From positions 1 through 25,308 of IMG/VR virus record IMGVR_UViG_3300027741_000253: a DNA stretch of 25,308 bases, one strand, 5' to 3'. Shown here piece after piece: positions 5,461-25,308 of the stretch (the first letter of the stretch is position 1; each line of letters opens with the position of its first letter). Both the position numbers and the translations under genes were made by a program. Source of the stretch: a virus. Lineage: Duplodnaviria; Caudoviricetes. The notes below the pieces were generated by a model. The model was given only the letters and a program-made list of their open reading frames with translations. It did not search any database and had not been told where the DNA came from.

Positions 5461-5488
5461 ACTATATCATCCTTTTGTAAAAGCACAA
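5461..5488 (-). promoter_or_regulatory. putative sigma70-like promoter for the late/packaging operon
   Basis: Minus strand TTGTGC-N16-TATAGT with extended -10 TGn, just upstream of the first late gene. Confidence 0.45.
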
Positions 5489-5629: not shown

Positions 5630-5810
5630 ATGTCCATTCTGTTCTATGCGAGTCCCAGTAGGGACGAGCACCTCTAAGCACCTATCCCCCCTATCCGGTG
5701 TAACCCCCTCTTGTTTTAAAAACTTGTAGCAGCGTTACAAAGTGCCATAAGTAAAAATTAAAAACAAAAACATTTCCCCCCCTCTACCCCTACTACTTAA
5801 CAGGGTTATT

Positions 5811-5831
5811 GGTAATGAGAATTATTCTCAT
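5811..5831. promoter_or_regulatory. Fur box-like palindrome
   Basis: ATGAGAAT-T-ATTCTCAT perfect 8-1-8 palindrome; GGTAATGAGAATTATTCTC is 15/19 to the Fur consensus GATAATGATAATCATTATC. Confidence 0.6.
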
Positions 5832-5848
5832 CTACTCACCACCTTATA

Positions 5849-5861
5849 TATCAACAACTTA
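5849..5861 (+). promoter_or_regulatory. IHF binding site-like
   Basis: TATCAACAACTTA matches WATCAANNNNTTR exactly. Confidence 0.5.
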
Positions 5862-6076
5862 CATTACTTCCCCCCACTACAAACTAGTCACTGTTCTAAC
5901 CATTGTTTGATACGTCCAGAACGTCTTTAAACACCCTTTCCTGAAGCAATCTGTTCGGTGTGTGTACCCACCTACATGCACACCCCTATCTCCCCTTTAA
6001 ACAAACATATCTTCCGTCCATTGTCTTGCTCGGAAAGATTGTTGCGTTTACATCAAAATCGTTTGAAGCCAAGCTG

Positions 6077-6319
6077 ACCTTCGGTAAGTTAGATCGCTGG
6101 ATCCGCCCCCCCGCTTCTTGTTCGGGTTGCCACCGTTCGCTGCGCTCACTAGCAGAAACCACGCCAGTCGCTGTCGTCCGCTTCGCTCCCTCGGCTTTGT
6201 GGCATGGCTCCGCGCGTTCCGCGCTCCGGGCTAACGCCTTTCTGCCTTGGCAATCGCTACGCGACTGCGCCCCTGCGGGGCTTGCCCTCACGCCCAGCTT
6301 CTGTGAGGGGGGCGGTTCC
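6077..6319. other. GC-rich multi-hairpin structured element A
   Basis: Nested inverted repeats 6099-6111/6307-6319, 6127-6132/6248-6253 and 6152-6158/6239-6245; several GNA-triloop hairpins on the minus strand. Confidence 0.6.
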
Positions 6320-6350
6320 CTCTCACCTAACCAACCAAAGGAACCACATC

Positions 6351-6587
6351 ATGGCTACTCAAAACGACTTCGACTTCAACGCTTTCAACAATCTTACGCA
6401 GCGCAAGCCTGCTGGCCTCCAGATCTTCTTGGCACAGCAGTTGCTTTCTAACGCACTCTGGAGCATGGAGAACTATGACAATCCTCGTCAAACCGAAGTA
6501 CGCGATGCACTCAATGCAATCAAGACACTTCGTTCACAGATGAAAGCTGATGCAGCAGCTCGCAAGATCGGTGAAGCATCGTTTTAA
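6351..6587 (+). CDS. early hypothetical protein (78 aa)
   Basis: ATG 6351 with AAGGA RBS; phage-typical codon usage starts here (the ORF-track start at 6204 lies inside element A). Confidence 0.8.
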   Translation: MATQNDFDFNAFNNLTQRKPAGLQIFLAQQLLSNALWSMENYDNPRQTEVRDALNAIKTLRSQMKADAAARKIGEASF

Positions 6588-6600
6588 CATTATTTCAACA

Positions 6601-6637
6601 AAGGTAGTAGTTAGCTCTACTACCTTATTTATTTTTT
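6601..6637 (+). terminator. stem-loop, terminator or processing site
   Basis: AAGGTAGTAG-ttagct-CTACTACCTT 10-bp stem followed by a T-rich tract. Confidence 0.55.
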
Positions 6638-6651
6638 AACTGGAGTAACTT

Positions 6652-6849
6652 ATGACTCAATTAGATCTCGTTGATGAAATGTCGTGGGAAGACTGCGACA
6701 AAGTGGAGCTTATAGGTCTCGATGAGGCTGGTCTGGAGGAGCCTGCGTTGGAGACAGAATCTCATTTACACGGGAGAATGTTTCATTCAGGCATTCATGC
6801 TTACTTAGATTGGTTCTATGACGGAGAGTGGTCTGGATATACAGAGTAA
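6652..6849 (+). CDS. early acidic hypothetical protein (65 aa)
   Basis: GGAG RBS and ATG start. Confidence 0.75.
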   Translation: MTQLDLVDEMSWEDCDKVELIGLDEAGLEEPALETESHLHGRMFHSGIHAYLDWFYDGEWSGYTE

Positions 6850-6854
6850 ATTAT

Positions 6855-6908
6855 CTTAGTAAGTAATTAGCAATAGTTACTTACTGAGGCTATTTTGCCT
6901 ATATGGAG
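6855..6908 (+). promoter_or_regulatory. hairpin-plus-RBS leader element, copy 1
   Basis: 15-bp stem (2 G-U) with GCAA tetraloop, then GAGGCTATTTTGCCTATATGGAG. Confidence 0.55.
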
Positions 6909-7338: not shown

Positions 7339-7478
7339 TGTTTCACATCACCAATTTTTTGAGACACATCGGTATGGCGACAGCCGTACTGATGTTGTTC
7401 TGTTACATGTGGGCAAGCACACCCCTTGTAGCTATCAAAATGTGCAAATCAACTGTCATTGACAAGGTGTTCCAATGA
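7338..7478 (+). CDS. small hydrophobic protein (46 aa)
   Basis: Not in ORF track. TGATG and ATGA overlaps with both neighbours; MFHITNFLRHIGMATAVLMLFCYMWASTPLVAIKMCKSTVIDKVFQ. Confidence 0.6.
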   Translation: MFHITNFLRHIGMATAVLMLFCYMWASTPLVAIKMCKSTVIDKVFQ

Positions 7479-7690
7479 ACGAGAATTATCTTCCTATTTG
7501 TACTTGCTGCTACGCAGTACGTGTTGAACCACAACGTGCAAAGATGGCTAGACCAACTTGCATGGAATGTGGTGAGATGCTTGCACAACGTGTCAAGCAC
7601 ACCATCGCACCAATGAACAAAAGCAACTACATGCTCTTCACAGATCCAGAGATGCTCAAACAACTCAATCCCAAGCGTACAGCGTGCTAA
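7475..7690 (+). CDS. zinc-finger-like protein (71 aa)
   Basis: CxCC...CxxCG cysteine pairs; ATGA coupling with the upstream gene. Confidence 0.75.
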   Translation: MNENYLPICTCCYAVRVEPQRAKMARPTCMECGEMLAQRVKHTIAPMNKSNYMLFTDPEMLKQLNPKRTAC

Positions 7691-7816
7691 CGCTCAGCCC
7701 TAGCATCCCGAGACGCCAGCCGCCAAGCGGTCTGGCATACGGGCTGCGGTGGGCTTCGCTTGACAATCTTTCCGGGCTTGCTCCCCGCCCTTAAGGGGGG
7801 CGGTGAGGCTGCGCCC
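7684..7816. other. GC-rich multi-hairpin structured element B (paralog of A)
   Basis: Shares GCTAACGC, ACGCCAGyCGC..TGGCAT and GGGCTTGC..CGCCC..GGGGGGCGGT blocks with element A. Confidence 0.6.
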
Positions 7817-7857
7817 TCTGTTGTTTTTTAACCACATCTTTATAGGAGATCACTATT

Positions 7858-7986
7858 GTGGGCTTGTTTTACATAGAAACAAATGAATACGACGACGTTC
7901 TGGTTGAGCTAAATCCAGACGATACTCGTGACCTTTTCACCGAAGAAAACGACAGCACTGTTAACCAACCAACTGGAGATCAATAA
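7858..7986 (+). CDS. small acidic protein (42 aa)
   Basis: Not in ORF track. AGGAG RBS, GTG start, TAATG overlap with the next gene; MGLFYIETNEYDDVLVELNPDDTRDLFTEENDSTVNQPTGDQ. Confidence 0.6.
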   Translation: MGLFYIETNEYDDVLVELNPDDTRDLFTEENDSTVNQPTGDQ

Positions 7987-8421: not shown

Positions 8422-8479
8422 CTTTTACATGGCCTTGTACCAACAGGGCTATGTGGAGGCAATTTCGCCTATTCTGGAG
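8422..8479 (+). promoter_or_regulatory. hairpin-plus-RBS leader element, copy 2
   Basis: 17-bp stem with 5 G-U pairs, then GAGGCAATTTCGCCTATTCTGGAG. Confidence 0.55.
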
Positions 8480-8484
8480 CCACT

Positions 8485-8934
8485 ATGACTACCTCTGTCT
8501 TAGCGACTTTGTATGCAGCAGCAACTGAGAGCTTAGTCTCAGATGCGTCTGCTACGAGTACTTTTGAAAAGATGATTGCGGAAGCATTCACTCACGGAAC
8601 TGTAGAGACTTTCACTAGAGACTTGATTGAGACTGAAAAACAGATCAAGAAAGAATTTGAAGTCAAGTCTATGCCCGGGCCTTGGAGGTCTGGTAAATCT
8701 GTGTTGTTGTCTGCTATGAAGCTAAACATCAAGCTTGTAGACACCAATGGGAACTACTATGGCAAAACAGCTTTGCAAAACAAAATCAAGGCAATGAAAC
8801 TGGAGACTAAAGATCCTGTTACCAGCATTGAATATGCTGACAAGATCATCAAGCTTCTGATGAACACACCTGCTGAATTGGATGTAGGTTTGGTTTACCA
8901 AGCTGTTTCTGATTTTATTAAACATGCTGACTAA
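8485..8934 (+). CDS. hypothetical protein (149 aa)
   Basis: GGAG RBS; overlaps the start of the vWA gene. Confidence 0.8.
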   Translation: MTTSVLATLYAAATESLVSDASATSTFEKMIAEAFTHGTVETFTRDLIETEKQIKKEFEVKSMPGPWRSGKSVLLSAMKLNIKLVDTNGNYYGKTALQNKIKAMKLETKDPVTSIEYADKIIKLLMNTPAELDVGLVYQAVSDFIKHAD

Positions 8935-10729
8935 AGCTATTGAAGTCACAAAGTACATACGCGCCAGTGCAGGAAGGGCTGGCTTATCAGTACAGTTTGA
9001 GGACACTAATCAACCAAGGCACGACGGTAACACTATCTTCTTGCCAAAGATTACTATCTCAACTACTGAAAAACAACTCAAAGAGTTAATGACTTCGGTA
9101 GACCATGAGGTCGCACACGAACGTTTTAGCTCTTTTGATTTGTTGAAAGAGAAAAAACTTGATCCTTCTAGCGCACTGATGTTTGTGTGGAACTTCTTAG
9201 AAGACTCCCGCATTAACGCCATAGAAGCTAGAGAGTATCTAGGATTCCGATATAACTGGGATGAAACTTCATCTGGGATCATCAAGGCAATCTTAGAACG
9301 TAGCAACAAAATTGCAACGCCCACAGCGGCTCTAACGCGATCATTGCTGTGCTGGGAAGCTCCTATCACAGCACATCTCTTTCCGACGGTTGAGTCTGTC
9401 ACTAGTCACTTTAAAGCAGATAAGAAAATCATAGATGTTCTTAATAACTATTCTGATCGTCTTGTTGCTTGTCAGCAAGTTTTAGACAAACGACTTGGCA
9501 CACAAGCTACTTATGACATAGCTTTGGACATTCTTAAAGATCTTGGCATCAAGAACCCTGAAGAAATGCCGCCAGAAGCAAAAAGCAAAGCAGCTAAAAA
9601 GTCGTCTGAAACAGGTGAAGGCAAAACAGAAGAAACTACATCAACAGAAACAACTGATGATGAAGCTAATTCTGGAGAAGGTGAAAACAAAGAAAACAAC
9701 GACGATGAATACAAAATTATTACGGTAAAACTTACCAAAGATGATTTGGACAAATTGTCGTTGACTATGCCTACAACTGGTAAGAAGATGGGCAAAGTTG
9801 GCATCAACCATGAACCAGTTGACTTGCACAGCATGGACAAGTGGGACATGACAGACTATGAAAAATTCACTGTTGTTAACTACCCTAAAAATATTGGTAA
9901 TGCTCATTACTTTAGAGAAACACCTGACTCGCGGGAGTTTGTGCGTCAGTACAACATTCGTGTAGGAGAAAACTTAGTTTCTCAAGAAAACTTTGCACAA
10001 CAGGTACGTAGACTGATTCAAATCAGAGCTAGAGTTCAAACTCAATACGGCACAAAGAAAGGCAAGCTAGATCAATCTAGGTTGTCTCGTATTTGTTTTA
10101 ATGCACCCGGCTTTAACGAGCGTGTGTTCAAAACTCGTATTGAGAACAAAACTCTAGATGCTGCCATTTCAATTTTGGTTGACATGTCAGGCTCTATGAG
10201 TGGGTCTAAAGCGTATTACGCTCTTGCTTCTGCTTTGTTGATGAACGAAGTGTGTACTACGTTGCGTATCCCAGTTGAGATCGTTGGTTTTACTGACGAA
10301 AACATTAGTAGTGGTGGTGCATTACCAGTCATGTTTGTCTACAAAGCTTTTTCTGATTTGCATGTTAGCAATGATGTGTTGTTAGAAAACTTTGCAAAAA
10401 GCAGCAATTTCATGTGTGGCAATCCTGACGGTGAAAACATTCTGTGGGCTTACGAACGATTGCTTAAACGCAAAGAACGTAAACGTGTATTTGTTGTCAT
10501 GTCTGACGGTGAACCAGCAGCATCTAAATCTTCTTATGGTCTAGAAGCTTTTACAAAGCGTGTGATCAAAGAAATCGAACAAGCCAAAAAAGTAGACATT
10601 TATGGTCTTGGCTTACAAAGCAACAGCGTTAAACACTACTACTCAGCACATGACGTAGTAGATAAACCTGAGCAGATTCCGAGTAAGTTGTTATCCCTAA
10701 TAGAAAAGAAAGTGATTGGATATGTCTAG
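8924..10729 (+). CDS. CobT-like vWA-domain protein with N-terminal HExxH metallopeptidase-like domain
   Basis: DHEVAH...NFLEDSRIN, acidic linker, MIDAS DMSGSM, VVMSDGEP; adjacent to an AAA+ ATPase. Confidence 0.85.
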   Translation: MLTKAIEVTKYIRASAGRAGLSVQFEDTNQPRHDGNTIFLPKITISTTEKQLKELMTSVDHEVAHERFSSFDLLKEKKLDPSSALMFVWNFLEDSRINAIEAREYLGFRYNWDETSSGIIKAILERSNKIATPTAALTRSLLCWEAPITAHLFPTVESVTSHFKADKKIIDVLNNYSDRLVACQQVLDKRLGTQATYDIALDILKDLGIKNPEEMPPEAKSKAAKKSSETGEGKTEETTSTETTDDEANSGEGENKENNDDEYKIITVKLTKDDLDKLSLTMPTTGKKMGKVGINHEPVDLHSMDKWDMTDYEKFTVVNYPKNIGNAHYFRETPDSREFVRQYNIRVGENLVSQENFAQQVRRLIQIRARVQTQYGTKKGKLDQSRLSRICFNAPGFNERVFKTRIENKTLDAAISILVDMSGSMSGSKAYYALASALLMNEVCTTLRIPVEIVGFTDENISSGGALPVMFVYKAFSDLHVSNDVLLENFAKSSNFMCGNPDGENILWAYERLLKRKERKRVFVVMSDGEPAASKSSYGLEAFTKRVIKEIEQAKKVDIYGLGLQSNSVKHYYSAHDVVDKPEQIPSKLLSLIEKKVIGYV

Positions 10730-11864
10730 TACTGACAAAGTGGAGCATCTTGTGAAAGAAGCACTTAAAGAAGCAATGGAGAAACGTAAATTGTCTACTA
10801 CAGCGGTTCCTCCTGTAAAACCACCTGACCTCCTTATGGACATGCTTGGTAAAGAAGAAATGGTAAAGCCAATTACAGTAAGCAGTGATGCTCCCAAAGG
10901 CATTGTGTTAAAAGCAAATCAACAGTTGTTTTCAACTGTTACTAGTACCACGGGCATGGATTGGAACTCAGACTTTCCAGTCACAGTGTTTGACAAATAT
11001 GAGTGGGATGAACGTATTGCCTTGTTTATTCCAGAAGTTGATCCTGAGTATGTCATTGACACGGATCTGGCTATGAGCATCTTGCGTGCTTGGGAAATGA
11101 ACGAAAAGGTACTTTGCTACGGCCCAACAGGTGCTGGCAAATCATCGTTGATTGAACAGTTGTGCGCTCGTACTTCTCGTCCTTTTGTCCGTATTAACTG
11201 CACAGGTGACATGGACTCGTCAATGATCTTTGGTCAACTGACTGCCAAAGATGGTTCTACACAATGGGTAGACGGTGCTGTTACCGAAGCTGTACGCTAC
11301 GGTGCTGTGTTTGCTTGGGACGAATGGGACGTAACACCTCCCGAAATCTCAATGGGTTTGCAATGGCTCTTAGAAGACAACGGCAAGCTCTTTCTCAAAG
11401 AGATGCCGGGTAACACCAAAGATCGTCAGATCATTCCACACGAACACTTCAAACTTGTGGCTATCGGCAACACACAGGGTCAAGGCGACGATACAGGTTC
11501 ACATGCAGGTACAAACGTACAAAACTCTGCTACGCTAGATCGCTTTGGTACTGCTGTATACATTGGGTATCTAGCACCTGAAGTAGAAGAAAAGATGATT
11601 CAAAACAAATGGTCATCAGTTATTACCAAGAAAGCAACCAAAGAGCTTGTTAAACTTGCTAATTTGGTTCGCCAAGGTTATACCAGTGGTCAGTTGAATT
11701 TGACTCTCTCACCTCGTTCATTGTTTAGCATCTGCAAAAAGCTTTCGTATGGTTCATCTCTTACAAAAGCTTATCAGCTTGTGTATCTCAACAAGCTGAA
11801 CGACACACAACGTAAAGTTGCAAACGAACTGTTTGTAAAAGTTTACGGCACATCTCACATCTAA
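10722..11864 (+). CDS. CobS/MoxR-like AAA+ ATPase
   Basis: Walker A GPTGAGKS, Walker B FAWDEWD, ATLDRF arginine finger, SPR sensor II. ATG 10722 preferred to TTG 10716. Confidence 0.88.
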   Translation: MSSTDKVEHLVKEALKEAMEKRKLSTTAVPPVKPPDLLMDMLGKEEMVKPITVSSDAPKGIVLKANQQLFSTVTSTTGMDWNSDFPVTVFDKYEWDERIALFIPEVDPEYVIDTDLAMSILRAWEMNEKVLCYGPTGAGKSSLIEQLCARTSRPFVRINCTGDMDSSMIFGQLTAKDGSTQWVDGAVTEAVRYGAVFAWDEWDVTPPEISMGLQWLLEDNGKLFLKEMPGNTKDRQIIPHEHFKLVAIGNTQGQGDDTGSHAGTNVQNSATLDRFGTAVYIGYLAPEVEEKMIQNKWSSVITKKATKELVKLANLVRQGYTSGQLNLTLSPRSLFSICKKLSYGSSLTKAYQLVYLNKLNDTQRKVANELFVKVYGTSHI

Positions 11865-16572: not shown

Positions 16573-17319
16573 ATGAAAGCACTTATAGATGGCGACATTG
16601 TGGTTTATAGAGCCGCAGCGTCAGCAGAAGATGCAGAGCAATGGGTAGCCCTAGCTAGAGCAGACAAGCTTATGCAGGACATCCTAGAAGACACACAAGC
16701 AGACAGCTACAGTGTGTACCTCACAGGAGCAGGTAACTTTCGTAGAGAAATAGCACCTAGCTACAAAGCACACCGACCTGAATCTAGACCACAACACTGG
16801 CAAGCAGTCCGAGAGTTCCTAATAACACAACACAAAGCAGTGATGTGTGATGGGTTTGAAGCTGATGACCAGTTAGGCATAGAACAAGACAAACATGGTG
16901 GCTCTACAGTGATTTGTTCTATCGACAAAGATCTACTCCAGATCCCGGGCAAGCACTACAACTTTGTTAAGAAAATCTTTCGAACTGTTACACACGATGA
17001 AGGCATTAGGTTTTTGTACATGCAAAGTCTTATTGGAGATCGCAGTGACAACATCATTGGTGTTCAGGGCTTAGGCCCCGTTAAAGCGGATAACGCTTTA
17101 AAAGGACTGCTTCCAGAAGAGTACTACGACAAGTGCAGAGCACTGTACGATGACGACAAACGGTTCCACCTCAACATGCAATTGCTTTACATCTGGCAGA
17201 AGCCTAACGATATGTGGCAACCGCCAACAGCTCCGCGAAGCGGAGATCCCACAACACCCGGGTTGTTCCCCACGGAACAACACGGCAACACAACCACAAA
17301 ACAGGAAGCGGCAACATGA
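16573..17319 (+). CDS. 5'-3' exonuclease / RNase H (T7 gp6-like, FEN family)
   Basis: LIDGDI, NFR...YKAHR, EADD, SIDKDLLQIPG, GDRSDNI.G..G.GPVKA. Confidence 0.92.
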   Translation: MKALIDGDIVVYRAAASAEDAEQWVALARADKLMQDILEDTQADSYSVYLTGAGNFRREIAPSYKAHRPESRPQHWQAVREFLITQHKAVMCDGFEADDQLGIEQDKHGGSTVICSIDKDLLQIPGKHYNFVKKIFRTVTHDEGIRFLYMQSLIGDRSDNIIGVQGLGPVKADNALKGLLPEEYYDKCRALYDDDKRFHLNMQLLYIWQKPNDMWQPPTAPRSGDPTTPGLFPTEQHGNTTTKQEAAT

Positions 17320-22985: not shown

Positions 22986-23375
22986 TTAAGCAACGCTAGT
23001 AATAATACCTTTTACAACAGTAACTGTAGTTCCTGTACCTGTTGTAAATGAGCCAGTATATCCAACCGTATCAATAGTCACAGAACCTGTGCTACTGGAT
23101 GTAGAAATGCGAGTGCTACCAGTTAAAGACGTAACACCTCCGTTAGATATGATGATGTCTCCAGTGGGCTTAGATACATTAATGCCCGTACCAGCAGCAA
23201 CAGACGTTACCCCCAGATTGACACCAGTGATAGTGCCGCCTGTGATGTTTACGTTGTTAGAGTTTTGAGTAGCTAGATCTCCAAACACTTTGTTACTAAG
23301 TTTTTGAAACCATTCTCTCCAAACAAAACTTTCTCCAATTTTGTCTTGGGGAATAGGAGTTGTTAGTCTTTGCAT
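22986..23375 (-). CDS. short Gly/Thr-rich fibre-like virion protein
   Basis: WREWFQKL followed by GVTS(V/L)xxG repeats; AAGGAG RBS 8 nt before ATG 23375. Confidence 0.6.
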   Translation of the reverse strand: MQRLTTPIPQDKIGESFVWREWFQKLSNKVFGDLATQNSNNVNITGGTITGVNLGVTSVAAGTGINVSKPTGDIIISNGGVTSLTGSTRISTSSSTGSVTIDTVGYTGSFTTGTGTTVTVVKGIITSVA

Positions 23376-24703
23376 TCGCAATACTCCTTGTCTGAATAGC
23401 CCATCTTTTTAAGCTCTGGCAATTGTTTTTCTAACCTGCATCCAATGTCAATGCGATAGCCAATGCTGTTGGGGATGTTAATTTTCTTTTTCAGAGTCTT
23501 GTAGCACGCATCACGAGCGTCTTCAACAGTCTCACCAGTACCAGTAACAATGCAGACGTAGTTGCCAGCAGTTACAAACTGCTCGTGTTTAAGTTTGACC
23601 TTGCCATCAACCATAGCAGGAGCTACACCGCGCTTGACGTAAGCAAGGTGGACGTTCTTAATAACATCCTCATCAGTCAAATCAAACATGGGATAGCCAG
23701 CATGTTCATCTTGAGGCACACCTTTGTTGTGTGGGTATGGGGGCATAGACACCACTACACCACAGGCAATGTCTTTGCTAACTTTCAGTGTGTCTTTACC
23801 ATCAAGCATGTCCAACATCCACTGAGCTGGATCACCTTTGTGCAAAGCTTGTTGGATCATAAACAAGGGCCAACCCGGGCGCATAGTGAACTCCAAAGGC
23901 CACGGAGTACCCTTGTCATCAATGATGCAGTTGACATCAATGTAACCAGTGTAGCGCAACCCATGCAGGTAACCTTCCAAGGGCTTAAGAACTTTGTCAG
24001 CCAATAACGAGTCTTCTACATAGTAAAGAATGGTTCCTTCTTCACCAGTAGAGACACCCAAATCACCAGCTAACAGCTTCTTGAACTCATGGTTAATACA
24101 TAAATGCTTAGAGAAACCGCCAGTACCAAACCAACCACCGACAGCAATTTCAATTCCCCCATGAAACTCCTGAAGAATAAAAGAGCCTTTGTACGCATTT
24201 GATTTCTTCCATTTCTGAAGCATAAACACCATGTCAGCAGGAGATTTAGACACGTAGCTTAAAGCCTTGTCACCATCACCCAAAGGCTTAGACACATACC
24301 GTTTGTTGTTCTTAATAACAAATGCAATCGCTTCATCGTAGCTCTTGAACTCTGTAGATGGGATCACCGGGATACCAGCACGTTCAAAAACATCTGCACC
24401 ATGTTGTCGGTCTTGTTCCCAACGATTAGTGTCAATGCTAGGCCCAATGATAGGATAGCCTTTGTCTCGATAGCGTTCTAGTTGGTGAATGTACTTGGTG
24501 TTGTCTGTACAGAAGATTAGGTTAGCCCAGTTCATGTGAGCTTCCCAATCATTGACACGGGTAATCAAACCACCATCACCAACTTGAGAACGAGTACCGT
24601 CAGGGTGGTTACGGATGTAGCATTTGACTATGTGACCATAAGCTTGGCAACGAAGAGCAAAGTCTAGGCACACACTGCCTGCGTCAATAATTAAAATGTT
24701 CAT
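23363..24703 (-). CDS. PurD (GAR synthetase)-like ATP-grasp ligase
   Basis: IIGPS...EQDR, AGIP, VSKP, ILQEF..G.E, KK...GDLG..TGE.G, Y.G.IDVN and LEFT.R.G.P parallel the PurD motifs. Confidence 0.8.
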   Translation of the reverse strand: MNILIIDAGSVCLDFALRCQAYGHIVKCYIRNHPDGTRSQVGDGGLITRVNDWEAHMNWANLIFCTDNTKYIHQLERYRDKGYPIIGPSIDTNRWEQDRQHGADVFERAGIPVIPSTEFKSYDEAIAFVIKNNKRYVSKPLGDGDKALSYVSKSPADMVFMLQKWKKSNAYKGSFILQEFHGGIEIAVGGWFGTGGFSKHLCINHEFKKLLAGDLGVSTGEEGTILYYVEDSLLADKVLKPLEGYLHGLRYTGYIDVNCIIDDKGTPWPLEFTMRPGWPLFMIQQALHKGDPAQWMLDMLDGKDTLKVSKDIACGVVVSMPPYPHNKGVPQDEHAGYPMFDLTDEDVIKNVHLAYVKRGVAPAMVDGKVKLKHEQFVTAGNYVCIVTGTGETVEDARDACYKTLKKKINIPNSIGYRIDIGCRLEKQLPELKKMGYSDKEYCECKD

Positions 24704-25308
24704 TGCAGTTTAGCCTTTTTCTTTTCAAGATTTATTTTTTCACGTTCAAGACGTTTAGCTTCTTTAATGTGAGTTGGAGTTACTTGTTCTCTACCTGCTT
24801 CAATTTCTTTTTGGTGGTAGTTCCAAGCATTCTTTTCAGACCGTAATTTACGATCTTCTTTGTCTACTTTACGTTGCTCTGGAGTTTTGCCATATACAGG
24901 AAAACCTAGTGTACCCAATGCTGCACGTTTAAGACCTTCTCCGGGTGGAGCTGTATCCGCAGCTTGTATTTGAAAAGGTGTAGCAGATTGAGCAATAACT
25001 TTAGCACGACCAAGAGCTTCATCAATTTTAGGATTGCCAGTGTAATCTTCTGGAATAAGTTTTTGGGCTTGAGGACTAGCGTACTCCGTACCAGCCAAAC
25101 CAACCCACAAAGCTTTAGGCACAAACCCTAACTTACTAGCAAGTGTTTTGTCTGGATCAGCAATCCAATGGTACGGTTCCATAGCGTGTTTCATAGCTTG
25201 CATAGACGTACCATCAGGCCATTCAATACGAGTTGGATCTTTGTTCTCCCAGCTAGGACGATTAGCTGTCATCAAGTTAATGCCGTTGATCAAAGTAAAG
25301 TAAGTCAA
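24700..25308 (-). CDS. C-terminal part of a large late protein (possibly internal virion/ejection protein)
   Basis: Open frame to the window edge; ATGA overlap with the ATP-grasp gene; late-arm position. Confidence 0.55.
   Translation of the reverse strand: MTYFTLINGINLMTANRPSWENKDPTRIEWPDGTSMQAMKHAMEPYHWIADPDKTLASKLGFVPKALWVGLAGTEYASPQAQKLIPEDYTGNPKIDEALGRAKVIAQSATPFQIQAADTAPPGEGLKRAALGTLGFPVYGKTPEQRKVDKEDRKLRSEKNAWNYHQKEIEAGREQVTPTHIKEAKRLEREKINLEKKKAKLQ

Follow-up and report, generated by a model that had tools for sequence, protein, structure and literature searches.

A predicted template-strand DNA fold with sigma54-like arms, conserved ahead of the early genes of a freshwater podovirus family

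The window analysed here is the whole 25,308-nt stretch of a tailed virus (Duplodnaviria; Caudoviricetes; positions 1 to 25,308 of IMG/VR record IMGVR_UViG_3300027741_000253). Its parent genome is 43.8 kb long and podovirus-like, and contig G001 matches the window at 100% identity in TerL, TerS and the first early protein. Packaging genes run leftward from 5433, and small early genes run rightward from 6351, followed by a T7-like replication set that includes a CobT/CobS-like pair (a CobT-like vWA and a CobS-like AAA+ protein, 8924-11864, downstream of e2); a primase and a helicase are among the phage's own gene products. Two GC-rich elements, e1 and e2, precede early genes, and the region is laid out as follows.

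6063..6090, plus: weak sigma70-like candidate TTGAAG-16-TAAGTT, a rival promoter at a position that is not conserved (score scan)
6077..6343, minus (early-template strand): e1, predicted branched rod (folds; 45/45 covered relatives; strand census)
6078..6092, minus: left arm of the outer helix, pairing with 6329-6341, with G.T on minus and A.C on plus (arms co-vary, by eye)
6099..6111, minus: C-tract arm, pairing with the G-tract 6307-6319 (repeats, fold)
6151..6167, minus: left arm of the core, minus strand reading CTGGCGTGG-TTTCTGCT, GG-N10-GC, 10/12 consensus positions; predicted non-template strand of a folded promoter (arm comparison)
6168..6199, minus: variable tip between the arms, holding the GCGAAGC hairpin 6180-86; 7-49 nt in relatives (alignment)
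6200..6207, minus: -24 half of the right arm, plus strand reading TGGCATGG; predicted template strand (arm comparison)
6208..6238, minus: pair of hairpins that lie within the right arm and break it up in the duplex, predicted to be looped out in the fold (folds)
6239..6245, minus: -18 to -12 half of the right arm, plus strand TTTCTGC, inverted-repeat partner of 6152-6158 (predicted pairing drop at -11)
6254..6281, minus: accessory C-GTA-G and C-GCA-G hairpins (repeats, fold)
about 6257: putative e1 start site, placed by sigma54 geometry
6351..6587, plus: first early ORF, 78 aa, three helices, no family; Shine-Dalgarno (SD) sequence at 6338-6342
6652..6849, plus: very acidic 65-aa ORF, homologues of which directly follow e2 in most relatives
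7688..7822, minus: e2, two domains (profile search, folds)
7702-7718, minus: e2 left arm, N11 (arm comparison)
7733-7748, minus: e2 right arm, GG-N10-GC intact on plus (arm comparison)
about 7759: predicted e2 start site
7858..7986, plus: acidic 42-aa ORF with a GTG start, directly after e2; homologues known in relatives

The first early protein returned no match at E<=0.001 in a fold search, and its apparent mimicry of Region I of sigma54 (E 0.056 over 10 columns) was lost in distant homologues and was rejected. Downstream of e2, the relatives encode mostly small acidic proteins; the 65-aa protein may act as a DNA mimic, and the early genes behind e1/e2 are probably anti-defence genes. Long AT-rich hairpins between the early genes (6601-6626, 6854-6889, 7366-7395 and 8424-8452) may be terminators or RNase III-type sites.

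Leftward of e1, the late side carries an extended -10 element, TGaTATAGT, with TTGTGC 16 nt upstream (5461-5488, minus), which is likely a late promoter. An A-tract followed by C-tracts (5700-5795) is kept across relatives and in two distant phages, and is possibly a packaging or terminal region. The palindrome TGAGAATTATTCTCA (5816-5830), which resembles a Fur box, has similar counterparts in L027, L035 and the distant phage MW202796. An IHF-consensus match lies at 5849-5861 (plus); in 26/47 loci (L001-L047) such a match stands 350-740 nt ahead of the ATG of the first early gene, and in six more, which have an inserted gene, 1290-1490 nt ahead of it; in 14/47 loci, the window not among them, two DnaA-box matches 11 nt apart lie near the IHF match. 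The IHF, DnaA, Fur and sigma70 motifs used throughout are general consensus forms. Elsewhere, overlapping GNA mini-hairpins occur on both strands at the 3' end of the exonuclease gene (17230-17245; on plus, a 6-bp C-GAA-G stem), and the gene of a PurD-like ATP-grasp protein (23363-24703, minus) sits amid those for virion and lysis functions. An internal protein of 1386 aa, the largest of the virion (L111:53-4213, minus; its C-terminal part is window 24700-25308), shows HExxH and GNAT-like RRKGVG motifs by eye, and its atlas leads, all below 0.9, are LPD38/LPD39 polyvalent proteins.

The original prediction, made from the letters of this region, described a GC-rich island with nested inverted repeats and a run of minus-strand GNA hairpins, and read it as a structure-based element on the template strand. 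The island is real (66% GC vs 43% for the window), the three repeats pair as described (6099-6111/6307-6319 at 12/13, 6127-6132/6248-6253 at 6/6 and 6152-6158/6239-6245 at 7/7), and all six hairpins are present. Between 6077 and 6320 the minus strand has six C-GNA-G hairpins and the plus strand none; the mean of 2000 dinucleotide shuffles is 0.77, and no shuffle reached six. Some details need revision: the island stretches to about 6343, its second copy at about 7688-7822 had been missed, and the sequence of the 6077-85 hairpin, while present, is predicted to form part of a longer outer helix (6078-6092/6329-6341) that reaches the SD. When both strands are folded as DNA and RNA, all z values are negative (minus DNA -1.8, plus DNA -1.0, plus RNA -1.8, minus RNA -3.4), which for a single copy is only modestly better than shuffles. 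The statement that no convincing sigma70 promoter is present holds inside the element by consensus scan, and has to be qualified by the weak candidate at 6063-6090.

Conservation among relatives, on which the prediction had been staked, is present. Forty-seven loci were collected with the first early protein as query, and all of those with upstream DNA (45/45) show a core, Y-R-CGCCAG, at 162-198 nt from the ATG on its upstream side. An e2 paralogue was found in 45/47 loci with a profile of the second GC-rich island; in the two remaining loci the sequence stops less than 500 nt from the gene. Three copies of the element occur in one locus. Only two cores were found in G003, a complete genome, and the parts of G001 that were searched also yielded two, all on the same strand; e1 and e2 each end just upstream of an SD. 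After identical and short sequences had been dropped, 41 distinct e1 copies, in two architectures and some with a large central bubble, were analysed and 43 distinct e2 copies were kept; counts over these copies are not independent, because the copies are related and modules have been exchanged among them. The IHF match lies 150-500 nt upstream of the core and is separable from it by insertions: in six loci e1 has kept with its gene despite an insertion of about 1 kb that separates the IHF/DnaA sites. On a TerL tree, the core is present in 37/39 anchored loci (N10 in 30, N11 in 4, N12 in 3), with the types mixed across clades, and the most distant of these loci, L238, also carries it. Several carriers stand outside the derivation of the model (L169, L196, L198, L238, L405 and the e2 of L234).

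The carriers of e1/e2 are a freshwater phage family; the best-matching sequencing run is a freshwater metagenome, possibly the one from which the window came. A strict e2 pattern search gave 40 matches, 31 of them on contigs already known. A relaxed core pattern run on viral contigs gave 120 loci from 5/64 parts, mostly chance matches and a single prophage coding stretch (lambda tail protein K-like), none of which looked like a new carrier. Rfam returned only sub-threshold chance matches for the window and 14 related loci, and BLAST against cultured phages and plasmids gave only short, chance-level matches. Among cultured phages, the nearest by TerL are Alcaligenes phage QDWS535 and MW202796; both lack the element, and QDWS535 has a strong sigma70 site in its place. 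The host is probably a Proteobacterium, because the closest cultured TerL is that of an Alcaligenes phage (53%) and because of the IHF-consensus matches. Sigma54 is present in 114/121 genomes (one of them, G029, unpublished) sampled from the order to which a Propionivibrio MAG carrying a distant TerL belongs; this order serves as a host proxy only.

The arms of the fold vary in concert. RNAalifold found double changes in 9/19 pairs across 40 e2 copies, and in a named structure of 29 pairs 13/29 change on both sides. Double-change cells in e2 number 106 vs 27 after shuffling, and pairing is 92% vs 29-45% in slid controls, for a 29-pair structure that was chosen on the same alignment of related copies. 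A strand census, in which both strands were folded with wobbles forbidden and mismatches were counted within helices found on both, is strongly asymmetric. Read on minus, the e1 mismatches are G.T 37 vs A.C 4, A.G 16 vs C.T 8 and G.G 15 vs C.C 1, and those of e2 are A.G 23 vs C.T 0 and G.T 14 vs A.C 0. Among 2x2 loops, tandem GA/GA is the most frequent in e1 and e2 alike, its G.A columns being kept in 37-38 of 40 e2 copies; another invariant motif is a GGGC/GCCC helix.

The DNA folding energy is lower on the minus strand in 36/41 e1 and 42/43 e2 copies. C-GNA-G triloops are likewise concentrated there (e1: minus 91, plus 8, shuffled 15; e2: minus 53, plus 14, shuffled 10), about six-fold above shuffles and about three times as frequent as minus-strand GNRA loops (30 in e1, 15 in e2), while cUUCGg is absent. 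According to the cited account, the RNA counterparts of GNA mini-hairpins are far less stable and the mini-hairpins bind SSB poorly (PMC13037366). Because of the mismatch census, the energies, the GNA loops and this instability of the RNA forms, the folded molecule is most likely the template (minus) strand as DNA, and that e1/e2 is a conserved template-strand DNA fold seems to us highly probable. The central idea of the original prediction, a structured template strand acting as DNA ahead of the early genes, thus gains support from conservation, strand census, covariation and GNA loops. The GNA hairpins themselves are missing from the minus strand in 10/41 e1 and 9/43 e2 copies; by comparison of the copies they are variable accessories, and the constant part is the stem with the sigma54-like arms.

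This conserved core, a sigma54-like -24/-12 stem, had escaped the original prediction. A single stem is common to e1 and e2: its left arm reads YTGGCG(Y)R-N4-(Y)TGC on minus and its right arm TG(G/T)CAY...GC on plus, so that each arm resembles a sigma54 -24/-12 promoter, which is described as having GG and TGC elements (PMC3844500). The left-arm GGC and the right-arm G(G/T)CA are each present in 84/84 copies of e1 and e2, in a search whose pattern itself demanded the invariant letters and matched at the expected place in every copy. Sigma54 is reported to contact the GG of the top strand and the T of the bottom strand (PMC3844500); in the folded minus strand the left arm takes the place of the top strand (GG) and the right arm that of the bottom strand (T), and the bases that match the reported contacts are exactly the invariant bases of the fold, 84/84. 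The facing bases drift (right arm G>T in 24/84, left arm A>G in 76/84), and the left-arm A>G change accounts for a near-invariant T.G pair (38/40).

Spacing in sigma54 promoters is strict in duplex DNA. In the left arm, GC stands at N10 from GG in 29/41 e1 copies (3.3 expected) and 21/43 e2 copies (3.8 expected), as compared with a background of 29/492 at other TGGCR sites. At least one arm has N10 in 36/41 e1 copies, with TGTC right arms counted, and in 32/43 e2 copies; neither arm has it in 5/41 and 11/43, a total of 16/84. The spacer letters vary and co-vary with the opposite arm, and GC is retained at -13/-12. Between -12 and -11 the predicted pairing of the arms falls from 0.58 to 0.22 in e1 and from 0.91 to 0.35 in e2; melting of sigma54 promoters is described as beginning at -11 (PMC10083551, PMC7057263). 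As a rightward site in duplex DNA, the core is intact in only 3/41 e1 copies and broken in 38/41, because of the G>T change, a spacing other than N10 or the insertion of hairpins, as at 6208-6238. Among the e2 copies, 13/43 have it intact, that of the window included. The left arms are intact leftward sites in 50/84 copies. CTG precedes the core in 41/41 e1 copies, and a C stands at that place in only 19/43 e2 copies. Sigma54 docking on the element appears rather probable.

The architecture extends to more distant phages. A profile search returned 94 clusters related to the first early protein, and rods were examined where DNA was obtainable. L406/L407/L408/L418 and L409/L419 have a rod at the same place (L406:2265-2490, L409:2295-2505), with a minus-strand fold that is better by about 6 kcal/mol; the left arm reads TTGCAA and the right arm TTG(A/G)CA, and sigma54 boxes are absent. 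The left arm of L409 continues as TTGCAA-16-TATAGT, and L406 has no good -10. TTGAC-bearing hairpins occur in L412 and L416, with no -10 at 17 nt, and GC- and GNA-rich elements with no clear core precede the homologue of the first early gene in L404, L411, L232 and L234. In L379, L414, L415 and L420 the gene is second in its cluster and no core was found within the stretch examined; L421 and L422 were false matches. The sister-lineage rods are, by their sequence, candidate sigma70-type single-stranded DNA (ssDNA) promoters in dsDNA phages, and the occurrence of boxes of two sigma classes on the same architecture favours RNA polymerase as the reader.

We see an even chance that e1/e2 is a Frpo-like ssDNA promoter with sigma54 specificity that drives the small early genes rightward. 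Its basis in sequence is conservation, covariation, strand asymmetry, a constant distance from the SD and a sigma54-like consensus on both arms. Near this end of the genome, the minus strand would become single-stranded when the plus strand is resected 5' to 3', during replication, or by extrusion with the help of SSB; resection starting from a left end would be one way of exposing it. Once single-stranded, it would fold into a stem that rebuilds a sigma54-type -24/-12 promoter, the left arm acting as the non-template and the right arm as the template strand, and host sigma54 RNA polymerase would bind the folded stem and transcribe the adjacent small early genes. G.A and G.T pairs and GNA caps would stabilise the minus fold, and the matching C.T and A.C mismatches would disfavour the fold on the plus strand and in the duplex; the combination would make a switch that works in ssDNA only, like Frpo on plasmids. 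In 7/41 loci a plus-strand terminator lies 330-390 nt before the ATG, which in those loci places the promoter within or just ahead of e1.

The need for an activator is a difficulty of this mechanism. Destruction of the -12 fork junction is reported to allow activator bypass in vitro (PMC4551910). Accounts of wild-type sigma54 holoenzyme describe tight binding to pre-melted promoters with the AAA+ activator still needed, and a -12/-11 fork that is repressive (PMC4005640, PMC5095919). No enhancer or GAFTGA activator was found: the phage AAA+ protein is CobS/AAA_5-like, and as a sigma54 activator it was not accepted (weak PF00158 match, 21.1 bits, cut-off 20.2; GAFTGA absent). Opening from -11 may lower or remove the need for an activator, or a host activator may act from solution. 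The fuller scenario, in which this lytic podovirus family exposes its template strand near a genome end and starts its early genes from a folded-only heteroduplex sigma54 promoter that is pre-opened at -11 and bypasses the activator, while in sister lineages sigma70 -35 boxes are built into an identical architecture, is possible but doubtful.

Promoter and priming origin are both compatible with sequence alone. It seems unlikely to us that the folded site is an ssi/sso-like priming signal at which a primer made by RNA polymerase or primase converts or repairs a single-stranded genome end, the link with gene starts being incidental. Frpo itself also primes replication, to judge from the title of Masai and Arai (cited in PMC11541004), and GNA mini-hairpins with poor SSB binding occur at the G4 and RSF1010 ssiA origins (PMC13037366). 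Relatives have IHF-consensus matches and pairs of DnaA-box matches upstream, and the minimum of the cumulative GC skew falls in the e1 region; contigs gave no genome ends. However, the skew also tracks the transcription switch, the phage has a primase and a helicase of its own, e1 follows its gene rather than the IHF/DnaA sites across the insertions of about 1 kb, and the two or three copies per genome each have an SD at a fixed distance. Similarly unlikely is a real fold read by some other phage or host protein, an N4-like extruded cruciform included, the sigma54 likeness being a coincidence of the short TGGC...TGC. Such a reader would account for the 16/84 copies that are off spacing, for the missing activator and for the further invariant motifs (the GGGC/GCCC helix and the tandem G.A), but not for a spacer that is free to vary while GC stays fixed at -13/-12, the predicted drop in pairing at -11 or the strand-wise match of invariant bases with the contacts reported for sigma54 (PMC3844500). 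Nor was a virion RNA polymerase found: as the original prediction had it for the window, no RNA polymerase gene came to light in this podovirus or its relatives by family and motif scans, which included the ORFs of G001 and G003, and PF00940 matched 0/5 relatives (95-100% complete) in a search whose positive control gave no match either.

Ordinary duplex promoters, either a weak sigma70 site upstream or the duplex-intact sigma54 arms, would leave the element as a poised or repressive sigma54 dock or switch, a reading that we consider quite unlikely. TTGAAG-16-TAAGTT at 6063-6090 has similar weak counterparts in some relatives, the intact rightward e2 sites and leftward left arms are there to be used, and sigma54 is reported to be able to repress by competition (PMC4551910). 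Yet no sigma70 motif recurs at one position before e1/e2, whereas the extended -10 recurs in 15/27 of the late-side best matches, and covariation and strand asymmetry over 270 nt are left unexplained. By score, 15/41 regions upstream of e1 exceed shuffles, on a matrix of general frequencies whose positive control failed by score, the likely late promoter not being separated from shuffles (17/27). Least probable, in our judgement, is a structured antisense transcript of minus-strand sequence, which might serve sigma54 polymerase as a decoy of the 6S type. The z of -3.4 for the minus RNA, the use of G.U and tandem G.A as RNA motifs too and the large central bubble of some e1 copies would suit it; against it stand the roughly three-to-one excess of C-GNA-G over GNRA, the absence of cUUCGg on minus, the want of an Rfam match and the fact that a leftward transcript from the left arm would begin outside the core.

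If the preferred reading, a folded sigma54 promoter on the exposed template strand, is true, dsDNA phages of this kind would lay one strand bare as infection begins or when their end is resected, and would use it as a trigger of transcription. A template that is naturally open in advance could also hold sigma54 polymerase or make it fire, a question that, in the accounts consulted, has long been studied and approached with synthetic heteroduplexes. Both implications are open to direct testing with oligonucleotides and purified holoenzyme, given a 130-nt e2 that comes in 43 natural variants. The host-polymerase ssDNA promoters in the literature found are sigma70-type and lie on conjugative plasmids; a search that covered few subscription papers found no description of a sigma54 ssDNA promoter or of the e1/e2 element.

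Several known systems share parts of this design. Like the G4 origin and RSF1010 ssiA, for which the cited source describes SSB-resistant GNA mini-hairpins on a single strand (PMC13037366), e1/e2 carries such hairpins; unlike them, it adjoins ribosome-binding sites and has a shared sigma54-like core. With sigma54 (RpoN) promoters and their melted heteroduplex mimics, as far as the cited accounts describe them, it has in common TGGC-N-TGC, GG-N10-GC and an opening beside -12 (PMC3844500, PMC10083551, PMC4005640), but its site is divided between both arms of a single strand and, as a rightward duplex, is for the most part broken. The comparison with N4 early promoters made in the original prediction captures template-strand GNA hairpins, sheared G.A pairs, a weaker complementary strand and early genes near a presumed end (PMC4496689). 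It fails in that N4, according to the same source, relies on a single short hairpin in a constant position and on a phage RNA polymerase of 3500 aa (PMC4496689), whereas the fold here is 130-270 nt long, its GNA hairpins vary in number and position, and a virion polymerase was not found, the 1386-aa protein being the largest of the virion. The closest likeness is to Frpo/ssi1-3 of F and ColIb-P9 and to classes 1-3 of pESBL, in which, as the cited accounts have it, a large imperfect stem of the template strand rebuilds a promoter for host RNA polymerase, in several copies that each precede the first-expressed small genes (PMC11541004, PMC12672017). The boxes of e1/e2 are -24/-12 and sigma54-like, those described for Frpo -35/-10, and the carrier is a dsDNA podovirus as opposed to a transferred plasmid strand. 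Conserved sigma70 boxes are absent from the stems of e1/e2, -35-like boxes occurring only in the distant relatives, and BLAST against the PLSDB plasmids gave a single chance-level match of 36 nt. By analogy, then, e1/e2 would work like a Frpo promoter and yet stand outside that family, and its identity with N4 promoters is rejected.
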